IMG/VR virus record: IMGVR_UViG_3300024324_000416
Span: 14,440 to 78,439 of that record
From: a virus
Length of the DNA stretch: 64,000 nucleotides
Reading direction: 5' to 3' (one strand)
Part shown: piece by piece, positions 7,745-63,922 of the stretch
Position numbering within the stretch: position 1 is the stretch's first letter
Layout: each line of letters begins with the position of its first letter
Translations under genes and position numbers: made by a program
The notes under the pieces: generated by a model
What the model saw: the letters and a program-made list of their open reading frames with translations, nothing else
What the model was told of the DNA's origin: nothing
The model's database searches: none

Positions 7745-7790
7745 AAATTTAGGAGACAGAACCTTCAACTGTGGTTAGGATAGGTCTGCT

Positions 7791-7820
7791 GCAGATTGCC
7801 CCCCAAGAGGGGGCATCTGT
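7791..7820 (+). terminator. GC-rich hairpin, probable terminator
   Basis: GCAGATTGCCCCC...GGGGGCATCTGT. Confidence 0.6.
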
Positions 7821-7836
7821 GGTATAATGAACTATT

Positions 7837-10716
7837 ATGGCTAGAGACATTAATCTATATGCAGCAAGACTTTTTGGAGAGCACCCAATTGCTACATGGA
7901 CTTTAGATGATATCACCTCTAACGCCTCTTTGCAGTATTTCTCTGACGACTTCCCAGCAATTGTTGCCGACGGCTATACAACAGGTTTGCCTCTTGTTTA
8001 TGGTTCTAGTCAATCAGTTGGGGTAACATCAGACAGCACGGGTATCATTATTGAAACAGAAGATCGGTTATGGTCACAAGTAAAGACATACTCAAATACA
8101 GGATTTGTAGTAGATTGGAAGTTCTGGTACAACGAGAACATTACATTTCAGGAATTGCTAGAGGAAGAGCGTTTCGTAATTGAGTTTGGTGAGGCAGGAA
8201 TTGAGCATAACGGTTACGGCATGTTCACCAACGGTGGCAAATACAACAAATACACATATGAGTTTTGGACCCGCATTAATCCAAGGGTAGATGTTCCTCG
8301 TAAGATCTGGGGCACACTAACTACATTGGACGGCATCTGGGTCAAAGACAATTACATAACTTTAGCAGTAGGAAACAAGTACAAGTCTTTTGCTATCGAA
8401 AATTGGTTTAGGCCAATGCTCTTGAATGTAACATACACATCAAACCAGGCAAGGCTTCTTATAAACGGACAAGAGGTTATCTCTCTTGATCTTAATCCAG
8501 AAGAGTTTAACTTTGATCCTATTAACGATGAGGTGACTGGTGAAGGTCTGCTTGGATTCATGGGATACCCAGAGATTGATTTGTTTGAGGTTGATTGCTT
8601 CTCTATCTTCCCCTACATTGTTCCTGATGAAGTATGTAAACGTAGGTTTGTATGGGGTCAAGGTCTATCCGACGCAGCATCATTCTCCACATTCTTCGAA
8701 AACTCTACCACATACATTGACTGGTCGTTTGCAAATTACGCAACTTCCGCTATCTACCCAGATGTTTTCAATTGGGACACAGGATACATTAGCGGATTGG
8801 TTACAAGCCGTGGATATGTAAAGACACCAAACTACAAACTTCCAGAAATTTTTATCCAGGGTAGAAAGTTAGAAAACTTATACAAAGAAAACCTATTCAA
8901 CAACTCAACAGAAACAGTAAGCCCTGGATTCTCCTTCAAGCCTGAATTTGACTGGACGCAAAACTCATACTTCTACTTTGATAGCATTGAGAAACTAGAG
9001 TCTCCCCCGCAGATTATCTATGGAGTCTTTTCTAAGCATTGGTACGAAACTAGCACCGACCCTCAACCACTTTTCAGATTTGTGAAACGGTATACCGATG
9101 ATGTTATCGACATTGTGATACAGGGAAACAACGTTCACTATATATATAACGGTGATGTAAAGTATTCTTTCCCTGTGCAGGATGATGTTCCCTTTACTGT
9201 GGGTCTTGATTTGAATGCGATTGTAAAAGAGAGTGTTGAGTTTAAGAACTTCCTTACAAGCCTTGCTGATGTTGAGGTGTTTGTTGGTGGTGATGGAGAA
9301 AGCACATTCTCTGGTTTAATTTATCGTGTTGGTCTTAGTGATACAGCAATGGTTGCTCGTGAAGAACTGGTGCAATATTTCCCAAGCGGCATTGCTAATC
9401 CTTATCACAACATGGCTACGTCAAAGGGTACCTATGTCATTAGACCCTTCATAAGATATGGAAACTTCTATCTTGACATTGAGGCAGGAGGATTCTGGGA
9501 GGATGCAATTCCTCTATCTTACTTTGGTAGGAACTTCCAAAAAGATGATGGAACCTACGAATCAAAACTTGACTTGTTGCAACTAAACATCGGGTACGAC
9601 GGATTGTACAAGATTAGAGATAATGGCTATGATGTGGGTGGTAGTGAAATGAAGTGCTACATAACTTTCCAACCATTAGAGGCAAAGAATAATAAGTTGC
9701 TAAGAGAGTTTACATCAACACAAAGCCTACCTAAAAACAGAATAATTGATGTAAGTGGAATGACAGCCCCAGATCTTGCTATTACAAAATTTGAATGGAT
9801 AAATGGTACAGTAGTTGTGCCTCCACAAAATTACGATTCTTGGAAAATAGTTGTACATTTTGATGTTTATGCAGAAGCCGTAATATCTTCTCCATTCTCT
9901 GTAAAACAACTTTCTATGTCCTCGCAGGCGTACAAGGATGAGGCAGAGGTTGGAACTAGGTTCGGGAACAAACTATCATCAACAGACAACTTTGCTATAT
10001 ACAAAGAGAATACACCATATCTATATCTAACAAAAGACAGCGGCATAGAGCCACTAGACGGCCCCGTTAATACGCCAATCAACCCTAACGGTAATTTCCC
10101 ATATTTGGTTGGTAACCTTAATATGTTTATTAAGCCCAATATCCTTATGGATACCGAAAACACCCTGTTCTCTATTGTATCTCGTAACGGAGTAATGGAT
10201 ATAAAGCACAACGGTACTGGTTGGGTGTTGCGTAGAAATGATCTTCCCATTGAGTATGTTGCCCTATATCAGAATGGTGAAGAGGTTACAGAGTTTACAT
10301 TCGATGTAGATAAGTGGACAATGGTGGGCGTGGAGTTTGGTGAACCACTTGACTTCTCTGTCTCTACCTTATATAAGATTATTTTAAATGAGGGGGCAGT
10401 CTATCAAAACATCTCTGTGTCAGCACTATCAGAAACACAGGTAGAGAGCACCGCTATCGTTAGGCTTTGGGAAGGTGTAAGGATTCAGACTTGGGGAGAC
10501 TGGGTTAATGACCCATCTGTTGAAACCTTTGCAGATCTCGTTTCTTCACGAGCATACCTACAGTACCCCGTTGATCCAACACAGATTTATAAGATATTTA
10601 CAGGTGGAAATACCACCAGCGTAGGCTCAGAAGATCCACCACTCAAGGTAGGGGAAATGAACACAACCATGGCTACTGGCGTTGAGTGGAAAACATTTGA
10701 TAGAAGACCTTCATAA
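7837..10716 (+). CDS. Large minor virion protein with LamG/concanavalin-like domains
   Basis: YTYEFWTRI...WFRPMLLNV...LLINGQEV LamG-like pattern; leaderless start 8 nt after TGTGGTATAAT. Confidence 0.55.
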   Translation: MARDINLYAARLFGEHPIATWTLDDITSNASLQYFSDDFPAIVADGYTTGLPLVYGSSQSVGVTSDSTGIIIETEDRLWSQVKTYSNTGFVVDWKFWYNENITFQELLEEERFVIEFGEAGIEHNGYGMFTNGGKYNKYTYEFWTRINPRVDVPRKIWGTLTTLDGIWVKDNYITLAVGNKYKSFAIENWFRPMLLNVTYTSNQARLLINGQEVISLDLNPEEFNFDPINDEVTGEGLLGFMGYPEIDLFEVDCFSIFPYIVPDEVCKRRFVWGQGLSDAASFSTFFENSTTYIDWSFANYATSAIYPDVFNWDTGYISGLVTSRGYVKTPNYKLPEIFIQGRKLENLYKENLFNNSTETVSPGFSFKPEFDWTQNSYFYFDSIEKLESPPQIIYGVFSKHWYETSTDPQPLFRFVKRYTDDVIDIVIQGNNVHYIYNGDVKYSFPVQDDVPFTVGLDLNAIVKESVEFKNFLTSLADVEVFVGGDGESTFSGLIYRVGLSDTAMVAREELVQYFPSGIANPYHNMATSKGTYVIRPFIRYGNFYLDIEAGGFWEDAIPLSYFGRNFQKDDGTYESKLDLLQLNIGYDGLYKIRDNGYDVGGSEMKCYITFQPLEAKNNKLLREFTSTQSLPKNRIIDVSGMTAPDLAITKFEWINGTVVVPPQNYDSWKIVVHFDVYAEAVISSPFSVKQLSMSSQAYKDEAEVGTRFGNKLSSTDNFAIYKENTPYLYLTKDSGIEPLDGPVNTPINPNGNFPYLVGNLNMFIKPNILMDTENTLFSIVSRNGVMDIKHNGTGWVLRRNDLPIEYVALYQNGEEVTEFTFDVDKWTMVGVEFGEPLDFSVSTLYKIILNEGAVYQNISVSALSETQVESTAIVRLWEGVRIQTWGDWVNDPSVETFADLVSSRAYLQYPVDPTQIYKIFTGGNTTSVGSEDPPLKVGEMNTTMATGVEWKTFDRRPS

Positions 10717-10765
10717 TCTGGTCTTGTTCCGTCACGCAAACTATAACTTGTGGTATAATATGGTT

Positions 10766-11125
10766 ATGTCAAATAAAAGGAAAGCACTAAAGAAACCACG
10801 AGTAACTGTAGTAGACGAGAATCCAGGTTGGGGTATTTACGCTTGGAAGAAGGCAGATGGAAGTTTGTTTATGGATGAAGATCATAACCTACTTAACATT
10901 CCATCCCGACAATACGATATGGACAAGATGGCTCAGATTACCAATGCCGCTGCCCATTACGGTGAGCCAGAGGGCAGGCCATACTTTATTCCTGGTATCC
11001 AACGAGCCACAGATGAAGAGTACACAGAACAGCGTGAAAGAATGAAGTCAGGGCTACTACCAACCATGAATGACTTCAACGCAGTTACAGACGCAAAGAA
11101 GGCGGCAGGAATACAAGATGGCTAA
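10766..11125 (+). CDS. Hypothetical protein preceding portal
   Basis: ATG 6 nt after TATAAT (10754-10759); overlaps the portal start. Confidence 0.65.
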   Translation: MSNKRKALKKPRVTVVDENPGWGIYAWKKADGSLFMDEDHNLLNIPSRQYDMDKMAQITNAAAHYGEPEGRPYFIPGIQRATDEEYTEQRERMKSGLLPTMNDFNAVTDAKKAAGIQDG

Positions 11126-39674: not shown

Positions 39675-40358
39675 ATGCCAAACATAAAATTTCTTATGCG
39701 ACCAGAGACAGTAGGCTTTGAAGCCCCTGTGCCTGCAAGCAAATGCGTGCCAGACTGGTATGTAAAAACACTTCCCTACATTGATGAGCAAACAAAAGAG
39801 TTGCCGCTAACTAAAGACGGTGGAGTAAATAGAACTATCAAGAGTTGTATGCCTGTATTTGATGCAATGACTCAAGGATACATATGGAAGACTCCCTGCG
39901 ATATACAATTTAACTTAGATGAATTCTCAAGGGTCACTCACCCAAACATGCCTTTTCAGGTTTTAGATTTTACTCATTCTACGCAACAGACACAACACTA
40001 TCCTAATTTAGGTCAAGGGTTCAAGTGGATGTTGCCCTTCCAGATTCAGACCCCCAAGGGGTACAGCACTTTATTTAAACATCCTTCACATCAGGACTTG
40101 CCATTCACCACACTAGAAGGTATTGTGGATACAGACAGGCACCCCATTCCCACGCATTGTCCTGCGTATATTCCTGCTGAGTTCCAAGGTGTAATACCCA
40201 AGGGCACTCCCATCGTTCAGATGATCCCATTCAAGCGGGAGGCATGGAAGTCAATGTCAGAGGTAGATGGTAGAATAGAGGAAAGAGTCATACAGTTTGC
40301 AACCAAGTTTGAAAAACAATATAAGATAAACTACAGAGATAAGAAGGTATACAAGTAA
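39675..40358 (+). CDS. Trimeric dUTPase/dCTP-deaminase-fold protein of unknown function (DUF6065-like)
   Basis: P.WY, K.C.P..DA...GY, TPKGYS, GIVDTD, IPKGTPIVQMIPFKRE. Confidence 0.6.
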   Translation: MPNIKFLMRPETVGFEAPVPASKCVPDWYVKTLPYIDEQTKELPLTKDGGVNRTIKSCMPVFDAMTQGYIWKTPCDIQFNLDEFSRVTHPNMPFQVLDFTHSTQQTQHYPNLGQGFKWMLPFQIQTPKGYSTLFKHPSHQDLPFTTLEGIVDTDRHPIPTHCPAYIPAEFQGVIPKGTPIVQMIPFKREAWKSMSEVDGRIEERVIQFATKFEKQYKINYRDKKVYK

Positions 40359-47570: not shown

Positions 47571-47729
47571 ATGAGTAAAGGCCACAGCGTTGGACTACAC
47601 AATAATAAGGCGTGGTTATTTAAGAGGTATTGTGTTGATAAGAAAGCAGTCAAAGCAATAGCAAAAGAGGCAGGTGTGAGCGAAGTAAGTGTTTATGCCT
47701 CTATCAAGAAGATGGGATTAAAGAGATGA
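47571..47729 (+). CDS. 52-aa HTH protein absent from the ORF track
   Basis: KAWLFKRY...AIAKEAGVSEVSVY..IKKMGL; leaderless start; ATGA overlap with the next gene. Confidence 0.75.
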   Translation: MSKGHSVGLHNNKAWLFKRYCVDKKAVKAIAKEAGVSEVSVYASIKKMGLKR

Positions 47730-48340
47730 TACAGGAAGTTCTTTCGTATAAAGAAACCTTGACTCTAGATGAGATCAAGGGAAATGTTTTTGTTATTGAT
47801 GACTTCCTTGCTCCCATTGATGCTGAATTTCTTATGCGTGCCATGTTTGATTGGGATCACTTCCCTTGGTACATGGTTCCCCGTGACGTTGCGGGGGTAG
47901 GAGAGTATGTAGAAAATCCAGACCCAAGAGATATGTATTTTAAGCATGACTTCTTTAACTCCCACTTTAATGTTTCTCCCACCATTCGCCTCATGGCACC
48001 ATTTGTAGAGAAGTTGGTTCCTCGTGCCATCTCACGCATCCGTGCAAATGTATATGCAGCGAGGGAGGAGCCATTTCAGTTTGGCTTCCACACCGACTAC
48101 GACGATATTGCAACGGCAGTTTACTATGTAAACACTAATAACGGTGCTACTCTGTTTGAGAGTGGTGACAGCGTTGAGTCCAAGCAAGGCAGGCTGGTGT
48201 TGTTTGATTCTAATCTAAAGCACACTACAAGGAACCATACAGATATTTCGTCAAGGATGTTGATTAACTTTAACTATGTGCCCTGCTCAAAGAAATTTGA
48301 TGTAGGCCCAGGAACCTACAAAGAAATTAATTATGGATAA
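47726..48340 (+). CDS. 2OG-Fe(II) oxygenase
   Basis: VIDDFL, HTD (HxD), YYVNTNNGAT.F, LVLFD...H, R..INFN. Confidence 0.85.
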   Translation: MIQEVLSYKETLTLDEIKGNVFVIDDFLAPIDAEFLMRAMFDWDHFPWYMVPRDVAGVGEYVENPDPRDMYFKHDFFNSHFNVSPTIRLMAPFVEKLVPRAISRIRANVYAAREEPFQFGFHTDYDDIATAVYYVNTNNGATLFESGDSVESKQGRLVLFDSNLKHTTRNHTDISSRMLINFNYVPCSKKFDVGPGTYKEINYG

Positions 48341-52677: not shown

Positions 52678-53030
52678 TGAAGGTATTGGTACAGGGCACT
52701 AAGGATTTTACGGACTACCAAGTCCTCATGCGTGCTATGGGTGTTGCACTATCATCCATGAAGCCAGGGGACAAGGAGTTTCAGATCTATGCAGTAGGCC
52801 CACACAAGACGAATGACCTTGCGTTGTCTTTTGCTAACCTAACAGAAGACAATCTAAAGGGTAGGGGTATCAAGATTAAGTTTAATAAACTACCCGCAAA
52901 GTTAGCAGAAGATAAGATAGATAGGTTTGACTACATGGCTTACCTAGCACACCCAGACAATCGTCGTCTATCTGCCTTGACCAACAAAGCAGAAGAGAAC
53001 GGCATTGCGTTAGGGATCTTTCGATACTGA
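52677..53030 (+). CDS. SLOG/YspA-like protein (tentative)
   Basis: MKVLVQGTKDFTDY start resembles SLOG-family G.R.F.DY. Confidence 0.45.
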   Translation: MKVLVQGTKDFTDYQVLMRAMGVALSSMKPGDKEFQIYAVGPHKTNDLALSFANLTEDNLKGRGIKIKFNKLPAKLAEDKIDRFDYMAYLAHPDNRRLSALTNKAEENGIALGIFRY

Positions 53031-55346: not shown

Positions 55347-55376
55347 TTGACAAGTGTCGGGGGTATTTGGTATAAT
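55347..55376 (+). promoter_or_regulatory. tRNA promoter
   Basis: TTGACA-N18-TATAAT. Confidence 0.75.
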
Positions 55377-55522: not shown

Positions 55523-55595
55523 GGCCTTGTAGTTCATCGGTTAGAACGCTTCCCTGTCACGGAAGAGGTAGTGGGTTCGATTCCCATCAAGGTCG
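55523..55595 (+). tRNA. tRNA-Asp(GTC), no encoded CCA
   Basis: GGCCTTG/CAAGGTC acceptor; CTTCC-CTGTCAC-GGAAG; GTGGG-TTCGATT-CCCAT. Confidence 0.92.
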
Positions 55596-55633
55596 CTATT
55601 GACAAACAACAACAGAAACGGTATAATAGAGAC

Positions 55634-55846
55634 ATGACAGACAAACTAAATGCCAGAGGCATCCCAACAAATGAGTGCCCATCCTGTGCTAACAGGTTGT
55701 TCACAGTCCAAGTTAGTTTTGACGAAGATTATAATATTGGTCAGTATTTACTAGACGCAGAGTGTGCTATGTGCGGTACGTTAGTCACAGCACCAACAGC
55801 AATCGACCATCCAGAATACAGCCCAACAGACGTAAGGTGGCTATAA
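55634..55846 (+). CDS. Zn-ribbon protein
   Basis: CPSC...CAMCG; leaderless, after TTGACA-N17-TATAAT (55599-55627). Confidence 0.75.
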   Translation: MTDKLNARGIPTNECPSCANRLFTVQVSFDEDYNIGQYLLDAECAMCGTLVTAPTAIDHPEYSPTDVRWL

Positions 55847-56673: not shown

Positions 56674-56803
56674 TTACAAATACTTGTGCATGGGATGCAA
56701 AGATAATGTAGTTGTTCTACATCATTCTCAATACTTTCGCACAGTTTATTGTGACAATTGCCTTGACAAACCAGACATGCTATTTGACAAGGAGGTCGTA
56801 TGA
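56660..56803 (+). CDS. 47-aa Zn-ribbon microprotein
   Basis: YLCMGC...YCDNC; ATGA overlap with the methyltransferase. Confidence 0.55.
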   Translation: MTTLDYKYLCMGCKDNVVVLHHSQYFRTVYCDNCLDKPDMLFDKEVV

Positions 56804-57657
56804 TAGACAAAATTCTTTATGGTGATGCTAGAGAAACACTTAAGAAGTTTGCCTCTTCTGATGCCAAGGCCCAGATGTGTATTACCTCACCACCCTATTA
56901 TGGCCTACGAGATTATGGAAATGAAGATAGTCAAATAGGTTTGGAAGAATCACCAGAGGAGTTTATTGCAGAGTTGGTCAAGGTGTTTGCAGAGGTTCGC
57001 AATTGCCTAGCAGACGACGGCACTTTGTGGGTGAACATTGGTGACAGTTACTATAACTATCGTGGTGGCAAGGGTCAAGCACTACCCAAGCAAAGTGTGG
57101 CATCTGGTATGCAGGATCTTCCGCAAGTAAAAAACCCACGACGAGGAAACAAACTTGAGGGATACAAGGAGAAAGATCTTATCGGTATACCTTGGATGCT
57201 TGCCTTTGCCCTGCGTGCTGACGGATGGTACTTGCGACAAGATATCATTTGGTCAAAGCCTAACCCGATGCCAGAGAGTGTCAAAGATAGAACTACAAAG
57301 TCTCACGAATACCTTTTCTTGCTGTCAAAGAATCAAAACTATTACTTTGATGTGGAGGCTATCAAAGAACCAACGGTAGAAGGAACACAAATGAAACGAA
57401 AGAAGAGTGTCTGGAATGTACAGACCAAACCGTATAAGGGTGCTCATTGTGCGGTGTTTCCTTCCGAACTTATTACCCCTGCCATTCTTGCAGGAAGCAA
57501 AACAAATGATATTGTTTTAGATCCTTTTATGGGTAGTGGAACTACAGCATCAGTAGCAAAAGAATTGAATAGAAATTATTGGGGCTGTGAGTTGCACAAA
57601 AATTACAAAGATTTGATCGATAAAAGACTTGACAAAACAGCACGACATGCGGTATAA
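56800..57657 (+). CDS. N4-cytosine/N6-adenine DNA methyltransferase (beta class)
   Basis: TSPPY before DPFMGSGTT; IIWSKPNPMPES; H.AVFP. Confidence 0.92.
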   Translation: MIDKILYGDARETLKKFASSDAKAQMCITSPPYYGLRDYGNEDSQIGLEESPEEFIAELVKVFAEVRNCLADDGTLWVNIGDSYYNYRGGKGQALPKQSVASGMQDLPQVKNPRRGNKLEGYKEKDLIGIPWMLAFALRADGWYLRQDIIWSKPNPMPESVKDRTTKSHEYLFLLSKNQNYYFDVEAIKEPTVEGTQMKRKKSVWNVQTKPYKGAHCAVFPSELITPAILAGSKTNDIVLDPFMGSGTTASVAKELNRNYWGCELHKNYKDLIDKRLDKTARHAV

Positions 57658-57658
57658 T
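57629..57658 (+). promoter_or_regulatory. Promoter for the glycosylase-halogenase operon, embedded in the MTase 3' end
   Basis: TTGACA-N18-TATAAT. Confidence 0.75.
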
Positions 57659-57687
57659 AGACACAACTACTATAGATAGGATTTGAC

Positions 57688-58203
57688 ATGCAGGTCTTTG
57701 TCCCCTTTCAGGACACCACCCTCATCGCAAAGTCGCTAGACAACAAGCGACTCAACAAGCAACTGCTAGAGGGTAGGCAACTACTCAACATCAATGCATC
57801 AGGACGCACTAAGGGAGCCTGGGTTAATCATCCTGCCGCTAAGATGGTGCGTGGCTACGAGGGTTGGTTCTTTGACTACCTAAATGAAATTAAGAAGGAA
57901 TGCACCAAGCGTAAGATCGAAACCACTAACAATTGGAATGCTATCAAGGACATTCGCAAGAATGCTAATGAGTGGAGCGACGGCTTTGAGCCTATGTGGT
58001 GGGGCGATACCCGTGTCCATGACTCGCACAAGGCTAACCTGTACCGCAAAGATCCCATTCACTACTTTGACTTTCGTGATGTTAAGAACAGCCCTTGCTG
58101 TGCTCGTTGCCTGTACTACTGGCCTGTTGATAGTCATGCTCAGGAATACAACGAGAAGTTCTACCTACAGAAGTTAAACATGAATACTAAGGTGGCATCT
58201 TGA
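57688..58203 (+). CDS. Pyrimidine-dimer DNA glycosylase (DenV/endonuclease V-like)
   Basis: MQVFVP...LDNKRLNKQLLE..Q...GAWVNHPA...SHKANL.RKDP.HY. Confidence 0.8.
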   Translation: MQVFVPFQDTTLIAKSLDNKRLNKQLLEGRQLLNINASGRTKGAWVNHPAAKMVRGYEGWFFDYLNEIKKECTKRKIETTNNWNAIKDIRKNANEWSDGFEPMWWGDTRVHDSHKANLYRKDPIHYFDFRDVKNSPCCARCLYYWPVDSHAQEYNEKFYLQKLNMNTKVAS

Positions 58204-59723
58204 AAGTAGATAGGATTGCTATTGTTGGGGGTGGTTCGGCAGGTTGGATGACTGCCGCTATCCTTAGCAAGTCATTTCCTGAGAAAGAAATAACACTAAT
58301 CGAATCTCCTGATATTCCTATCATTGGCGTGGGCGAGAGCACCACAGCGGGTATCCAAAGGTTTATGAAGTACCTTGATATCAAAGATGATGAGTTTATG
58401 CCCATGACTAATGCTACCTACAAAGCCAGCATTAAGTTTACTGACTTCAACACCAAGGAAAATTTCCACTACCCATTTGGCTATGCAGAGAAAACCACGG
58501 GCAATGAGTTATTTGATTGGGGTCTAGTCAAGCAACAGTTTGATCTACCTGTTACTGACTATGTTGATACGCACTTCCCCATGTCTGCTTTGTTTAATCA
58601 AAATAAGATGAACATGAACTTCTTGGGTGTGGAGAGGTTCCCTTGGATGGCCTATCACTTTGATGCCATTAAGTTTGGGTTGTACTTGAGAGACTACAAG
58701 TGTAAAGGTGTTGAGCACATACAGTCAGAGGTAGTGGGTATCGCACAGGATGAGAGTGGGATCGCATCACTAACCCTAGACAATGGGCAGGTAATAACTG
58801 CTGACCTATTTGTAGATTGCACAGGCTTCAAGAGTATGCTACTTGGTGAGACACTAGAAGAAGAATTTAAGTCTTATGCTGATGTGCTTCCCAACAACAA
58901 AGCGTGGGCGGTACAGATACCATACAAGGATAAGCGAAGTGAGATGAGGCCATACACTAACTGTACAGCGTTGGGTAATGGTTGGGCTTGGCACATCGGG
59001 GTATGGGATCGTCTTGGTAACGGGTATGTGTTCTCCGATAAGTATGTATCTGATGAGGATGCTCTAGAAGAGTTTAAACTATATCTTATGTCGGATAGAA
59101 TGTCTATCCCTAGGTCTAGGGAGGAGGTAGACTCCTACAACTATCGCTTGGTACCATTCAAGGTGGGGGTATACAATAGGACTTGGGTAAAGAATGTGGT
59201 GGGTATTGGACTATCCGCTGCATTCCTAGAGCCACTAGAAAGTAATGGCCTACAATTCGTCCATGAATCTTTATTCTATCTTATTGATACGCTAGATCGG
59301 GGTAACGTAAATAGAATAGATAAGGATATGTACAACGAAAGAACGTATCAATACTTTAATGGGTTTGCTAACTTCATCGCCTTGCACTATGCTGTATCAG
59401 ATAGGCGAGACACTAAGTATTGGCAAGACATACAGGAAAGAGAGTATGAATTTCATCCAGAGATAGCGACAGGATTGCTGGAAACCTACACCTTTTCAGA
59501 CATTGACGCTGGCCCTGTTTTCATTCTACTAGGAAACGGATACAATTTTGCGGGTACTGTAGCATCAAAGATACAGAAAGATTTTTATGATAACAAAGAT
59601 CATACTAGTTTGTATGGATCGCTACAGATGCGTAAGTTGCTTTGGGAGAATGAAGCAAAGAAATGTCTGCTACACTATGATTACCTAGAGAAAAATATAT
59701 ACGGATTGGATTATTATGCCTGA
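58200..59723 (+). CDS. Flavin-dependent halogenase, tryptophan-halogenase (PrnA/RebH) family
   Basis: GGGSAGW, IGVGES, NATYKASIKF (catalytic Lys), YHFDA, FVDCTGF, GWAWHI, FLEPLES. Confidence 0.88.
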   Translation: MKVDRIAIVGGGSAGWMTAAILSKSFPEKEITLIESPDIPIIGVGESTTAGIQRFMKYLDIKDDEFMPMTNATYKASIKFTDFNTKENFHYPFGYAEKTTGNELFDWGLVKQQFDLPVTDYVDTHFPMSALFNQNKMNMNFLGVERFPWMAYHFDAIKFGLYLRDYKCKGVEHIQSEVVGIAQDESGIASLTLDNGQVITADLFVDCTGFKSMLLGETLEEEFKSYADVLPNNKAWAVQIPYKDKRSEMRPYTNCTALGNGWAWHIGVWDRLGNGYVFSDKYVSDEDALEEFKLYLMSDRMSIPRSREEVDSYNYRLVPFKVGVYNRTWVKNVVGIGLSAAFLEPLESNGLQFVHESLFYLIDTLDRGNVNRIDKDMYNERTYQYFNGFANFIALHYAVSDRRDTKYWQDIQEREYEFHPEIATGLLETYTFSDIDAGPVFILLGNGYNFAGTVASKIQKDFYDNKDHTSLYGSLQMRKLLWENEAKKCLLHYDYLEKNIYGLDYYA

Positions 59724-60408
59724 GTTGACATACCATTGCATCAAGGATGGGCTTGTAGACGTAGAAGAGTTTAGACCTGTCAAACTTATTGACGAGATCC
59801 CTAAGTGGTTTAAGGATATGCCCATGGAGGCCATGAATGGGATTGTTCCTACAGCACGGAGATGCCCATCGTTTCTTGATCTATTTAAGTCTGCATATGT
59901 TATGAAGGCTTGGGAGGATATGGAGTTCTTCTTCTTTCCTCAGGAGAAACGATGGGAATATTCAGGGGCAACCTCTGAATTTAATATATCACAGGAACAC
60001 GACAACCCACAACTTCTAGATCACATACCTTACAAGGGTTACGAGCGTATCATCAAGCCAGCCTCGCCATGGATGCTAGAAACACCCAAGGGATACAGCG
60101 TATATCAGTTGGCATACCCGTTTGATTTCCAGCAGGACTTTGATGTGTGGCCTGGTATTACTCACACAGATTTCTATCACGAGACTAACGTGCAGTTGTT
60201 TGTTCGCAAGAAGGGTGATGAGCCATTTAGTTTTAAGATTAGGCGTGGGCAGCCACTTTGCTTGCACGTTCCCTTCCGCAGGGAAGAGGAGCCATGGACT
60301 GCTAAATTCACCAACGATGGTGAACGGTACATGAAAAAGTCTTTTATGATTTCTCTTACTAAATTTAAGAACGGCTATAGAAGCCTAACAAAAGGATGGA
60401 TAAAGTGA
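59716..60408 (+). CDS. dUTPase-fold protein, paralogue of 39675..40358
   Basis: PKWF, RRCPSF.D, TPKGYS, PGITHTD, IRRGQPL...VPFRRE. Confidence 0.6.
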   Translation: MPELTYHCIKDGLVDVEEFRPVKLIDEIPKWFKDMPMEAMNGIVPTARRCPSFLDLFKSAYVMKAWEDMEFFFFPQEKRWEYSGATSEFNISQEHDNPQLLDHIPYKGYERIIKPASPWMLETPKGYSVYQLAYPFDFQQDFDVWPGITHTDFYHETNVQLFVRKKGDEPFSFKIRRGQPLCLHVPFRREEEPWTAKFTNDGERYMKKSFMISLTKFKNGYRSLTKGWIK

Positions 60409-61097
60409 AGATAGATGTATTAGATCATGGATATGTAAGACTAGTAAATAGCATGGGCACAGAGGTAGACATTGCTAATGCTGCCCGTGTGTCTTACGAC
60501 AAAGAAGTGTATGATATTCAAGACAGCGACAAGAGACTGATTAACTTTCTTATCTCTCACCGCCACGACAGCACGCTACGACATAACGTAATGTCATTTG
60601 AGGTTTATGCCCCTCTTATGGTTGCTCGTCAATGGTGGAAGCACCATGTAGGTTCTACGCACGTTGAGGATCAGAATGGCTGGAACGAATCTTCTCGTCG
60701 TTATATCACAGAAGATCCTGTGTTTTACATCCCAGAGTTTGACGAGTGGCGAGAGAAGGCGGCAAGCAACAAGCAAGGAAGTGGTGGCCCTGTAAGCAAA
60801 GACACAGGTGTTATTGCAACCAAACTGTTGCAGGCACACGCACAGAAGAGCCTTGAGTTGTATGATGATGCTATGGCACGAGGCATCTCACCAGAGCAAG
60901 CACGGATGTTTTTGCCTGCTTACTCCATGTATGTGCGGTGGCGTTGGACTGCTTCCCTAAATGCTATTTTAAGTTTCTTGGATCTACGACAGGGAGAAAC
61001 GGCACAGAATGAAATCACAGAGTACGCCAACACAGTAGCAATCTTTGTAGAAGGACAATACCCCATCACAATGGAGGCATGGAATGCAAGTAGATAA
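60396..61097 (+). CDS. thyX: Flavin-dependent thymidylate synthase
   Basis: NAARVSY, H.S...H, APLMVARQW, NESSRRY, EQARMFLP, AQNEI. Confidence 0.88.
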   Translation: MDKVKIDVLDHGYVRLVNSMGTEVDIANAARVSYDKEVYDIQDSDKRLINFLISHRHDSTLRHNVMSFEVYAPLMVARQWWKHHVGSTHVEDQNGWNESSRRYITEDPVFYIPEFDEWREKAASNKQGSGGPVSKDTGVIATKLLQAHAQKSLELYDDAMARGISPEQARMFLPAYSMYVRWRWTASLNAILSFLDLRQGETAQNEITEYANTVAIFVEGQYPITMEAWNASR

Positions 61098-62580
61098 CAT
61101 AGTTATCGTCGGCGGCGGTAGTGCGGGATGGATGACGGCAGCAACGCTACGCAAGGCGTTCCCTAAGAAGAACATAGTCTTGGTAGAGTCTGCCAACATT
61201 CCAATTGTGGGTGTGGGTGAGAGTACGCTGGGGCAGATCAATAGGTGGATGCAGTTCATAGGCGTTGATGACGATCAGTTTATGCCTGAGACAAATGCCT
61301 CATACAAGATGAGTATCAAGTTCACAGACTTTGCAAAGGAAGGCGTTGCGTTCCACTACCCCTTCGGCACTAGCATGGGTGGATCTATTGACCCCTTTAG
61401 AGACTGGCATGAGGTCAGGTCGCACTACCCAGAGATGCCCGTAACAGACTATGTTGATACCTTTTGGCCTAACTCTGCGTTGTTCAATAGCAACAAATAC
61501 ACAGACAGTTTTAGTAATCTAAATCCAAATAATGATGTTGCGTATCATTTCGATGCTGCTGCCTTTGGCAAGTGGCTCAGGGAATACAAGTGCCCAGATG
61601 TTTTGCGGGTAGAGACAGATGTGGTGGGAGTAACAAAGCGTGAGGATGGTTCTGTAGTATGCCTGATTACACCAGAGGGAAACATCTACGGTGACTTATT
61701 TATTGATTGCACAGGGTTCAAGTCATTCCTACTAAGCAAGCAAATGGAAGAGCCTTTTGTTTCCTATGAAAATTTGCTACCAAACAACAGGGCATGGGCC
61801 TGTGCTTTGCCTTACGAGGATAAAGAAAAAGAACTAGAACCTTACACAAACTGCACCGCTATTGAAAATGGTTGGTGCTGGAACATCCCCTTGTGGTCAC
61901 GCTTAGGAACGGGGTATGTTTATTCAGATAAGTTTGTAAGTGATGAAGAAGCACTAGAGCAATTCCAACAATACCTAATGTCAGATAAGATGGTTGTGCC
62001 TCGCACATGGGATCAGATAAAAGATCTTGAATACAGGCCCATCTCTATGCGTGTTGGCATACATGAGCGACCCTTTGTTAAGAATGTCGTTGCGATAGGT
62101 CTCGCCATGGGATTCCTTGAGCCTTTGGAATCAAACGGTTTGCTAACAACACACGAAAGTTTGTTCTGGTTGATTGATGTTTTGAATAGAGGGACTGTTA
62201 CAGAGTTCGACAGATACCTATTTAATAACAAGGTTCGTCAGTTCTTTGATGAGTTTGCTAAGTTTTTGTTTATTCACTATGCAATGTCTGAAAGAAATGA
62301 CACAGAGTATTGGCGATCTGTTCAAGAAAGACCAGCAGAGTTTCCTGGTTTCGTACAAGCATTTATGGATAACTACACGTTGCCCGAAACAACGGGGGTA
62401 GGGTTCATTGCTACAGGCATGGACTACAGGTTTGTTAACCCTTGGAGACAAGAGACAGAAGAGGGCTGGGCAAAGGACAATAAAGATTGGTATGATGGAA
62501 TGAAGAGAAGGTGGAAGGAAGAGGCAGACAAAGCCCCAACCCTACACGACTGGTTAAAGGAGAACATTCATGTTAGATGA
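61084..62580 (+). CDS. Second flavin-dependent halogenase, tryptophan-halogenase family
   Basis: GGGSAGW, VGVGES, NASYKMSIKF, YHFDA, FIDCTGF, GWCWNIPL, FLEPLES. Confidence 0.88.
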   Translation: MQVDNIVIVGGGSAGWMTAATLRKAFPKKNIVLVESANIPIVGVGESTLGQINRWMQFIGVDDDQFMPETNASYKMSIKFTDFAKEGVAFHYPFGTSMGGSIDPFRDWHEVRSHYPEMPVTDYVDTFWPNSALFNSNKYTDSFSNLNPNNDVAYHFDAAAFGKWLREYKCPDVLRVETDVVGVTKREDGSVVCLITPEGNIYGDLFIDCTGFKSFLLSKQMEEPFVSYENLLPNNRAWACALPYEDKEKELEPYTNCTAIENGWCWNIPLWSRLGTGYVYSDKFVSDEEALEQFQQYLMSDKMVVPRTWDQIKDLEYRPISMRVGIHERPFVKNVVAIGLAMGFLEPLESNGLLTTHESLFWLIDVLNRGTVTEFDRYLFNNKVRQFFDEFAKFLFIHYAMSERNDTEYWRSVQERPAEFPGFVQAFMDNYTLPETTGVGFIATGMDYRFVNPWRQETEEGWAKDNKDWYDGMKRRWKEEADKAPTLHDWLKENIHVR

Positions 62581-62857
62581 TTTGAATGATGTTGAAGATC
62601 TAACCTCAGATATTGAGGTGTGCGTCATGCATATCCCTATGAGATGGAGCAAGCGTCTTCACCCACACTTCACCTGTTTGAATTGTCCAGAGGTGATCGC
62701 AAGACGGAATAAGAGGAAGCAAAACAGTTGTTGTAGCGGTAGAGACTCAACAAACTTCCACAGCAATAACAGAGCCCAATGGGAACAACACCTAAGAATA
62801 CATTTAGCAAGACGAGAAGAAGTTCCTAAAGAAGCATGGGAGTTGGAGTTAGAATGA
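62570..62857 (+). CDS. Hypothetical Zn-binding protein
   Basis: FTCLNC ... HLRIH. Confidence 0.55.
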   Translation: MLDDLNDVEDLTSDIEVCVMHIPMRWSKRLHPHFTCLNCPEVIARRNKRKQNSCCSGRDSTNFHSNNRAQWEQHLRIHLARREEVPKEAWELELE

Positions 62858-63066
62858 GCACGATGATTGAGTCAGGGGACTGGGACTTCAATGGGGACAT
62901 TGAGAAGTTCTGGCGTGAGAGGTTTGCCAATCAAATAGAGCAGACGCTTATGCATCAGATTCCTGATTTCGATACGGAAACTGAATGGTTCAATAAGGGT
63001 ATGAGACATGCCGCATGGGTTTTGCGGTATAGCAGAGATGATCTAGGATGGGAAAAATATGATTGA
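62854..63066 (+). CDS. Hypothetical protein
   Basis: ATGA overlap. Confidence 0.55.
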   Translation: MSTMIESGDWDFNGDIEKFWRERFANQIEQTLMHQIPDFDTETEWFNKGMRHAAWVLRYSRDDLGWEKYD

Positions 63067-63289: not shown

Positions 63290-63318
63290 TTGACAAAAGA
63301 AGGGCATTCAGGTATAAT
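63290..63318 (+). promoter_or_regulatory. Promoter, leaderless
   Basis: TTGACA-N17-TATAAT, ATG 6 nt downstream. Confidence 0.8.
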
Positions 63319-63324
63319 AGACAC

Positions 63325-63450
63325 ATGGCAAAGATTGAAGAGGGACTAGTGGGACATTGTAAACGCTGTGAGCAAGGCGAACACGGCATTGAAAGTAAGT
63401 ATCGTGCAGGACATTGTTCCTGCTGTGGAACTGAGGTGGAATATGCGTGA
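63325..63450 (+). CDS. 41-aa Cys-rich microprotein
   Basis: HCKRC...HCSCCG; leaderless; overlaps the next start. Confidence 0.65.
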   Translation: MAKIEEGLVGHCKRCEQGEHGIESKYRAGHCSCCGTEVEYA

Positions 63451-63922
63451 TGCAGTCATATTCGATATCGACGGAACTTTGGCTGATGTTAACGAGTTTC
63501 TTCATCATCTTGTTCACCGTCCTGATAGCCCTAGGGATTGGGAGGGGTTTCATAGAGCGGTTGGAAAGGCTAAAGTAAAGTTAGATGTTTTTTACATGCT
63601 TAAACTCTACAATGTTCGTAACATTACTGTTATTCTTTTAACTTCCCGCAATGAAGAGTGGCGTGCAGAAACCGCAAAGTGGCTCAAGAAGAAGCACATT
63701 CCTTATGATGTGTTGATGATGCGTAGTAAGGGTGATGATCGCTCTGCCCCAGAATTTAAGGAAGATAGGTTTAAGAAGATCATGCAGGAATTCAACATCG
63801 TACAGGTGTTTGATGACCACCCTGGTGTTTGCGGGGTAGCCGAAGAACTAGGCATCCCCGTAACAAAGGTTCCTGGATATGAAGAAGCAAGTCTAATGAT
63901 GGAAGAGTTGGTGAAGGCATAA
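63443..63922 (+). CDS. HAD-family phosphatase (polynucleotide 3'-phosphatase-like)
   Basis: FDIDGTL, TSR, LMMR, K, VFDD. Confidence 0.85.
   Translation: MRDAVIFDIDGTLADVNEFLHHLVHRPDSPRDWEGFHRAVGKAKVKLDVFYMLKLYNVRNITVILLTSRNEEWRAETAKWLKKKHIPYDVLMMRSKGDDRSAPEFKEDRFKKIMQEFNIVQVFDDHPGVCGVAEELGIPVTKVPGYEEASLMMEELVKA

Follow-up and report, generated by a model that had tools for sequence, protein, structure and literature searches.

Halogenase genes paired with a dUTPase-fold partner gene in the DNA-metabolism operon of an uncultured tailed phage

Results

A seven-gene unit carrying two halogenase genes

The stretch of DNA analysed here (64,000 nucleotides, hereafter the window) makes up the final 64 kb of IMG/VR virus record IMGVR_UViG_3300024324_000416, which is 78.4 kb long and has an estimated completeness of about 67%. 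It carries a transcription unit in which two genes for flavin-dependent halogenases (Hal1 and Hal2) bracket the genes for a 230-residue protein with a dUTPase fold (p230) and for a ThyX-family flavin-dependent thymidylate synthase. As described below, the pairing of a halogenase with a p230-type protein recurs in other phages, whereas thyX is not linked to either gene outside the lineage of the window. The record comes from a tailed phage, with genes for a portal protein, a head protease, a terminase, ribonucleotide reductase (RNR), DnaB, a primase, a DnaE-type polymerase (sharing about 51% identity with Streptomyces phage polymerases), UvsX and three tRNAs; the structural genes that were found map around kb 11-14 of the window, far from the halogenase unit. 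Megablast and tblastn searches of cultured phages with the region and with p230 returned no match. Functional statements throughout are drawn from sequence, from predicted folds of moderate confidence and from gene order.

The five open reading frames (ORFs) that run from the gene for an endonuclease V (EndoV)-like protein to that for Hal2 are all on the plus strand and overlap successively by 4-14 nt, behind a perfect sigma-70-type promoter (Table 1). A preliminary description of this DNA had proposed five overlapping genes behind one promoter, with a DenV-like gene at their head, the two halogenases on either side of the p230 and thyX genes, and no flavin reductase gene in the window. The promoter and the overlaps stand, as do the gene calls: the two halogenase ORFs match PF04820 (E values of 7.6e-103 for Hal1 and 3.7e-102 for Hal2; scores of 345 and 343 bits, the cut-off being 21), the DenV-like ORF matches Pyr_excise (PF03013, E 1.3e-13) and the ThyX ORF matches Thy1 (PF02511, E 4.5e-35). 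The gene count had to be changed. Since the next perfect promoter is found only at 63290, and orf95 and orf76 also overlap within the unit, we count seven genes rather than five. Neither a flavin reductase (Flavin_Reduct, PF01613) nor a canonical dUTPase (PF00692) was found even across the whole 78-kb, roughly 67% complete record, and family profiles identified no scaffold-building enzyme (nonribosomal peptide synthetase, polyketide synthase or prenyltransferase) among the genes of the unit.

Table 1. Features of the halogenase unit and of related or neighbouring genes (positions in the window)
Feature	Positions	Strand	Basis or remark
Promoter, perfect sigma-70-type, TTGACA-18-TATAAT	57629..57658	+	12/12 matches; heads the unit
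EndoV-like/MSMEG_6728-family protein, 171 aa	57688..58203	+	Pfam PF03013, NCBIfam NF038085
Halogenase 1 (Hal1), 507 aa, TTG start, VirX1-like	58200..59723	+	PF04820, 6QGM match
p230, 230-aa Cys-bearing dUTPase-fold protein, DUF6065-related Syn9-gp43 family	59716..60408	+	Fold and profiles
ThyX-family flavin-dependent thymidylate synthase, KHH for RHR, 8-aa insert	60396..61097	+	PF02511, TIGR02170
Halogenase 2 (Hal2), 498 aa, full WxWxIP	61084..62580	+	PF04820
orf95, no family match, kept in lineage relatives	62570..62857	+	In the unit
orf76, no family match, kept in lineage relatives	62836..63066	+	Final gene of the unit
Next perfect sigma-70-type promoter	63290..63318	+	Bounds the unit
PNKP-type HAD phosphatase, conserved lineage backbone	63368..63922	+	PF25109, E 1.4e-18
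N6/N4 DNA methyltransferase, upstream neighbour	56800..57657	+	PF01555, E 1.5e-54
p227, second dUTPase-fold family member, directly before dnaE	39675..40358	+	24% identical to p230

Four perfect (12/12) sigma-70 sites are present on the plus strand between positions 53000 and 64000 of the window, at 55347, 55599, 57629 and 63290. Four such promoters in 11 kb is far above chance, which suggests early or middle units driven by the host RNA polymerase. The promoter of the halogenase unit is of the early type, and the unit sits among genes for DNA metabolism.

Both halogenases keep the catalytic residues

The matches to PF04820 cover positions 1-405 (Hal1) and 1-412 (Hal2) of the 458 in the model. 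As the preliminary description had claimed, both proteins have the FAD-binding GxGxxG motif (GGGSAG in each), the Glu of EPLES and the catalytic Lys at the position of PrnA K79, the segments YKASIKF and YKMSIKF aligning to YKNSIRF of VirX1. The WxWxIP motif is complete in Hal2 (GWCWNIP) and altered in Hal1 (GWAWHIG), in which Gly replaces the Pro. On these residues, both halogenases look catalytically competent. They would most likely take FADH2 from a flavin reductase of the host and, with O2 and halide, form hypohalous acid and a Lys-haloamine; an electron-rich aromatic carbon would be halogenated.

Among proteins of solved structure, Hal1 is closest to VirX1 from cyanophage Syn10 (PDB 6QGM, E 3.5e-90), with the bacterial tryptophan halogenases ranking behind it. 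The alignment spans residues 2-413 of Hal1, with GxGxxG, NATYK.SI.F and EPLES in common, and differs from VirX1 in that the C-terminal 90 or so residues of Hal1 are left unaligned and in the Pro-to-Gly change in WxWxIP. The two halogenases of the window share 49% identity. Where lineage relatives have a single halogenase, it is orthologous to Hal2 (55-63% identity), and Hal1 is about equally distant from the halogenases of all lineage relatives (46-54%); on this comparison Hal1 is an extra halogenase copy.

In 15 uncultured loci of our survey a small membrane-type protein with about 95 hydrophobic residues, which matches no Pfam family, is encoded immediately 5' of the halogenase (L098 at 1836-2249, L064, L083, L086, L088, L089, L093, L095-L097 and L100-L104). 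It has no counterpart in the window.

p230 has the fold of a dUTPase and an invariant cysteine

That p230 adopts a dUTPase fold, as had been proposed from the sequence, was borne out by structure and profile comparisons. The AlphaFold model of p230 (pLDDT 70) was compared by VIA-align with 48,161 chains, and ten dUTPases were matched with Z scores of 9.7-7.8 over 108-129 aligned residues; all of the top 22 rows belong to the dUTPase/dCTP-deaminase superfamily or to viral dUTPase-related proteins, after which the Z score falls to 4.6. Nearly every one of the top 50 Foldseek matches is a dUTPase or a dCTP deaminase, the best with an E value of 4e-3 (weak agreement), and hhalign against four bacterial Dut proteins gave an E value of 6e-5 (probability 65%). 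A profile search of PDB sequences reached an E value of 0.086, and only the region of motifs 3 and 4 aligns with dUTPases. In the Pfam scan PF00692 was matched by neither p230 nor p227, the second family member in the window, and just one of 127 diverse family members matches the Pfam dUTPase model (E 1.8e-4).

The features with which dUTPases hold their substrate are largely missing from p230. Motifs 2 (RSG), 4 (R..Q) and 5 (Gly-rich) have no counterpart in the p230 alignment, and motif 3 reads GITHTD, with His at the place of the catalytic Asp. What p230 shares with the trimeric dUTPases and dCTP deaminases is the fold and part of the base-binding hairpin of motif 3, which is recognisable in the family as G-x-x-[DH]-x-D; in contrast to dUTPases, the family has an additional conserved N-terminal region of some 60-70 residues (P..W, K.C..F.D). 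With the phosphate-binding motifs 2, 4 and 5 absent and the catalytic Asp replaced, p230 appears not to be a dUTPase despite its fold. The suggestion that this protein handles dUMP analogues consequently finds no support in the sequence.

The p230 family is large, with 3,484 clusters at 50% identity. In the 127 members over which conservation was scored, Cys50 is the sole invariant column, and P29, W31, D68, H95, Q99, K114, T123, G126, G147, D152, R189 and Y221 are near-invariant. In PHROGs p230 matches only phrog_7084 (function unknown), and in Pfam nothing. DUF6065 (PF19541) was reached by 35 of the 127 members (best E 1.7e-10), and the ESM Atlas neighbours are viral DUF6065 clusters, while a DUF6065 search with p230 and p227 themselves gave no match even at an E value of 10; the Pfam model covers only part of the family as we delimit it. 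A literature search found no paper mentioning DUF6065. A single family profile recovers both Syn9 gp43 (E 5e-40) and p230 (E 8.5e-70).

Members longer than p230 contain only the family domain (in one case as a tandem duplicate) and unmatched sequence, and so offered no informative fusion. Tandem arrays of two or three family paralogues are frequent; we saw three copies at survey loci L042, L043, L048 and L082, two at L005, L017 and L018, and a fused pair in P0149. Such tandem or fused, diverged paralogues of a dUTPase-like fold hint at hetero-oligomers. SapC, a companion of halogenases in proteobacterial TonB-receptor clusters, was considered as a relative of p230 and rejected, as hhalign against nine putative SapC ORFs, two of them possibly read from the wrong strand, gave a probability of 0.03.

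The family also occurs beside RNR, both in one group of bacterial phages and in haloarchaeal myoviruses. Members resembling p227 are a conserved gene of haloarchaeal myoviruses of the HF1/HF2/HRTV/HCTV type (about 50 virus records). In HRTV-5 (Halorubrum tailed phage 5) the p227-like gene (gp36, survey locus L213) is divergent beside the RNR gene, and no halogenase was found in the 12.7 kb of surrounding sequence that we retrieved.

The halogenase and its partner recur together in other phages

In their account of the Syn9 neighbourhood (NAR 2010, PMC2938197), Iyer, Abhiman, de Souza and Aravind noted its ten dioxygenases and the gp43-type protein beside the halogenases (the gp41-gp43 trio), and proposed that the cluster synthesises a secondary metabolite. 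We found that Syn9 gp43, whose gene overlaps that of the halogenase gp42, is a member of the p230 family, and that a gp43-like gene directly follows a halogenase gene in at least seven cultured cyanophages (Syn9/Syn10, S-CREM1, S-RIM44, Sf-FR1, P-TIM40 and Sf-FP1/CH3). The window and Syn9 (gp41-gp43, with the dioxygenases gp45-gp54) therefore have the same pair, a halogenase and a Cys-bearing dUTPase-fold protein, in different arrangements. The Syn9 halogenases precede the partner, whereas those of the window bracket it; and the cassette of the window has no adjacent 2-oxoglutarate (2OG) oxygenase or tail-fibre genes and is instead interleaved with the EndoV-like gene and thyX, as part of a DNA-metabolism operon of the early type.

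The association was measured by gene order. Our survey sampled about 270 loci overall, among them 104 related loci outside the lineage of the window (80 centred on the p230 family and 24 on halogenases) and, as a control, the 80 closest of 287 matched viral ThyX loci. A halogenase lies within 8 kb, and often adjacent, in 13 of the 80 uncultured p230-family loci, against 2 of 80 in the ThyX-centred control (Fisher p = 0.005). Conversely, 7 of the 24 uncultured halogenase loci have a p230-family member, two of them on both sides. On a tree of 78 dereplicated family members (a quick IQ-TREE search) 11 changes are required to account for the 16 that adjoin a halogenase, and supported branches force at least 6 of these changes; scattered in this way, the pairing must have been formed or lost many times. 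The linkage between halogenase and dUTPase-fold protein anticipated in the preliminary description thus recurs, and the inclusion of thyX in it does not: thyX was found in 0 of the 104 loci.

The commonest neighbours of the p230 family are two families of 2OG-Fe(II) oxygenases (18 and 14 loci) and the halogenases (15 loci), followed by UvsX and DNA methyltransferases. In several lineages a small protein of about 65 residues with two CxxC pairs (zinc-ribbon-like) is also encoded near members of the p230 family or near halogenases. The window has it at 55634-55846 (in the ORF 55571-55846), 2.4 kb upstream of Hal1 and behind a perfect promoter of its own; elsewhere it is found in L026-L031 (at 7766-7984, directly upstream of a p230-family member), in L083 (at 10713-10928), and in L096, L084 and L036.

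What the pair acts on is suggested in different directions by these neighbourhoods. In Syn9, S-WAM1, P-RSM6 and S-SZBM1 the halogenases come after tail-fibre and fibre-assembly genes, and the proteins encoded near halogenases include Gly-rich ones and a glycosyltransferase, as would be expected if the halogenases and their partner modified Trp, Tyr or His of a fibre or another virion protein. Hal1 and Hal2 also give weak matches to QhpG and LodB, flavoenzymes that modify protein Trp, which would indicate a weak kinship at the family level. We nevertheless rate such virion tailoring as unlikely for this phage, given that no virion gene is near the cassette in the window phage or its relatives, that the unit promoter is of the early type and that the unit encodes no candidate target protein.

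A route to a small molecule, in which a free aromatic metabolite of host or phage would be halogenated and p230 would be another enzyme of the route, agrees with the closest solved relative, VirX1, the one characterised relative, which is known, in the part of its literature covered here, for halogenating free aromatic small molecules. It agrees also with the metabolite synthesis proposed for the Syn9 cluster and with the origin of the closest bacterial halogenases, which come from actinomycetes, cyanobacteria and TonB-receptor clusters. The lack of a scaffold-building enzyme in the unit speaks against it, as does the finding that the 80 closest bacterial halogenase loci contain 0 p230-family members at an E value of 0.01, and we take this route to be improbable as well.

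A further reading makes p230 itself the substrate: Trp31 or another aromatic residue near Cys50 would be modified and so mature into a cofactor derived from the protein itself, much as in LodA/LodB or QhpC/QhpG. The invariance of Cys50 and near-invariance of W31, H95 and Y221 would suit it, as would the tie of the family to oxidative enzymes (halogenases and 2OG oxygenases) rather than to one pathway, and the QhpG and LodB matches point the same way. These matches, however, are far below the cut-offs and mostly confined to the FAD-binding part; the halogenase-specific Lys and Glu are kept in both enzymes, and for many members of the family no oxidase is encoded within 3 kb. This leaves modification of p230 a decidedly poor prospect.

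ThyX and the EndoV-like protein belong to the backbone of the lineage

Relatives of the unit show which genes travel together. Three metagenome contigs with p230 proteins 93-94% identical to that of the window have the same gene order. Five more distant contigs (p230 60-64% identical) have the DenV-like gene, p230, thyX, orf95, orf76 and the PNKP phosphatase gene, and then one halogenase, 2.5 kb downstream. From this order, the DenV-like-p230-ThyX block is the backbone of the lineage and the halogenases are the movable part. Seen from ThyX the result is the same, as a halogenase occurs in 2 of the 80 closest-ThyX loci and is missing from the other 78. That thyX works in one pathway with the halogenases, as had been proposed, finds no support in these counts or in its absence from the 104 related loci. 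The other option put forward at the outset, in which thyX is an incidental neighbour, fits better, except that inside the lineage thyX is part of a conserved block.

By profile scores the protein belongs to the ThyX family. It scores 121.6 bits against a cut-off of 24.8 with PF02511 and 131.9 against 87.9 with the equivalog model TIGR02170, and its S-RY, ARxxLP and LR..AQ segments align with those of T. maritima ThyX. In place of the signature RHRx7-8S the window protein has KHHVGS, then an insert of eight residues and then NESSRRY, and this form is kept within its lineage. The change from the canonical RHR to KHH plus insert is a trait of a large phage clade: K-[YH]-[AHS] followed by the 8-residue insert (..DDQNGW) before NESSRRY was present at all 80 viral loci examined (L220-L299). 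Being common to 80 of 80 loci, 78 of them lacking a halogenase, it is to be seen as a clade trait and not as an adaptation to halogenases.

This bears on the idea, raised in the preliminary description, that ThyX supplies the halogenases with reduced flavin. The arginines of the RHR motif help to hold FAD in ThyX, and a protein with KHH in their place, encoded between the halogenase genes, translationally coupled to them and in a record in which no flavin reductase was found, might be thought a flavin donor. Yet the non-RHR motif and the insert are found at all 80 of the closest viral loci, only 2 of which have a halogenase; the protein passes the equivalog cut-off of TIGR02170, and thyX is absent from the 104 related halogenase or partner loci. 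With KHH common to a clade of phage ThyX proteins that mostly have no halogenase beside them, we consider flavin supply by ThyX extremely improbable. It would do its own job, the synthesis of dTMP.

The EndoV-like protein matches PF03013 over its residues 1-84 (51.5 bits against a cut-off of 23; positions 1-80 of 81 in the model) and the MSMEG_6728 family NF038085 with 75.4 bits (E 4.4e-21; positions 1-148 of 149), below that family's cut-off of 100. With its model the top VIA-align row was T4 endonuclease V (1ENJ, Z 6.8 over 94 residues), but it does not clearly stand apart from the rows that follow, which have Z scores of 6.7-6.0 and include unrelated helical proteins, and Foldseek gave no match. 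In the protein and 14 homologues E28 and three Cys residues are invariant, E28 lying opposite Glu23 of the T4 enzyme in a manual alignment only. Unlike T4 endonuclease V, which has only 137 residues, the EndoV-like protein has an extra C-terminal Cys region, where its family shows an invariant PCC..C.YYW cluster and His114; the cluster may be a metal site, in a part of the model with pLDDT below 50. The protein would likewise do a job of its own, DNA repair or similar.

Beyond the lineage of the window, just one further lineage (L027-L031) has a DenV-like gene next to a halogenase. RefSeq labels of 'DNA endonuclease V' or 'denV' are found in the halogenase/oxygenase clusters of cyanophages (L107, as Syn9 gp51 and gp53; L215; L216; and L218, from S-SSM7). 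The cyanophage genes so labelled match the 2OG-Fe(II) oxygenase of the window (47726-48340) and not the EndoV-like protein, so these names look wrong and lend no support to a halogenase-DenV link.

Discussion

We propose that the unit holds a tailoring pair of the Syn9 gp41-gp43 type, set inside the DNA-metabolism operon of this lineage, with thyX and the EndoV-like gene as neighbours outside the pathway; on balance we hold this to be probable. The best-supported account of the gene orders is that those two genes are neighbours by lineage history and not pathway members. As for p230, its motifs and neighbours suggest that it most probably serves oxidative tailoring enzymes as an accessory or as their target, and that it does not hydrolyse nucleotides; we infer that it binds or presents the substrate or is itself acted upon.

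Several observations weigh against this proposal. For roughly half of the halogenases tested from cultured cyanophages, no member of the p230 family lies within 6 kb (S-B64, S-WAM1, P-RSM6, S-MbCM6, S-SSM7 and S-SZBM1). The Fisher test gave p = 0.046 after a rough, and hence crude, dereplication, and the partnership is facultative, since the majority of family members lack a halogenase in their vicinity. In the lineage of the window the DenV-like gene and thyX are more constant companions of p230 than any halogenase is. Finally, the position of family members beside RNR, DnaE and UvsX would also fit a nucleotide-linked role.

Such a role has been formulated as the halogenation of pyrimidine nucleotides or DNA. 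Uracil C5 is open to electrophilic halogenation; p230 would bind the pyrimidine, its Cys might activate C5 through addition at C6, and the halogenases would add Cl, Br or I at C5. Halogenated bases in the phage DNA would result, and the EndoV-like protein and ThyX would take part in the same handling of nucleotides. The dUTPase fold of p230, its partial base-binding hairpin and its invariant Cys are all consistent with this, and so are the conserved DenV-like-p230-ThyX block, the location of the family next to RNR in bacterial and haloarchaeal viruses and next to DnaE and UvsX, the early-type sigma-70 promoter, the DNA-metabolism surroundings and the distance to the virion genes. Against it are the missing phosphate-holding motifs 2, 4 and 5 and the His in place of the catalytic Asp, and also the commonest neighbours of the family, which are 2OG oxygenases and halogenases that in cyanophages lie beside tail-fibre genes. 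Moreover, thyX is unlinked outside the lineage, VirX1 is known, within the published material considered, for free aromatic small molecules, and our literature search found no paper tying halogenases to phage DNA modification. Both the chemistry and the halogenated genome that it would produce seem to us distinctly unlikely here, and the general claim that halogenase and p230-type pairs act on pyrimidine nucleotides or DNA, so that such phages carry 5-halogenated bases, very unlikely indeed. Were it true, the place of the pair in an operon with a DenV-like gene, thyX and a methyltransferase gene would reflect a real nucleotide pathway.

Hal1, Hal2 and p230, with or without ThyX, make a clean minimal set for work in vitro. 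The cassette as such has been known since its description in Syn9 in 2010; its setting in a nucleotide-metabolism operon is unusual. Most known copies are beside tail-fibre and 2OG-oxygenase genes, from which the idea of virion tailoring arises, while the copy in the window, which has no virion gene in its vicinity, stands in a nucleotide-metabolism operon of the early type. The partner family, tied in this lineage to thyX and an EndoV-like gene and elsewhere found with RNR, DnaE or UvsX, has an existence of its own, and these independent settings make a reading based on fibres alone less secure.

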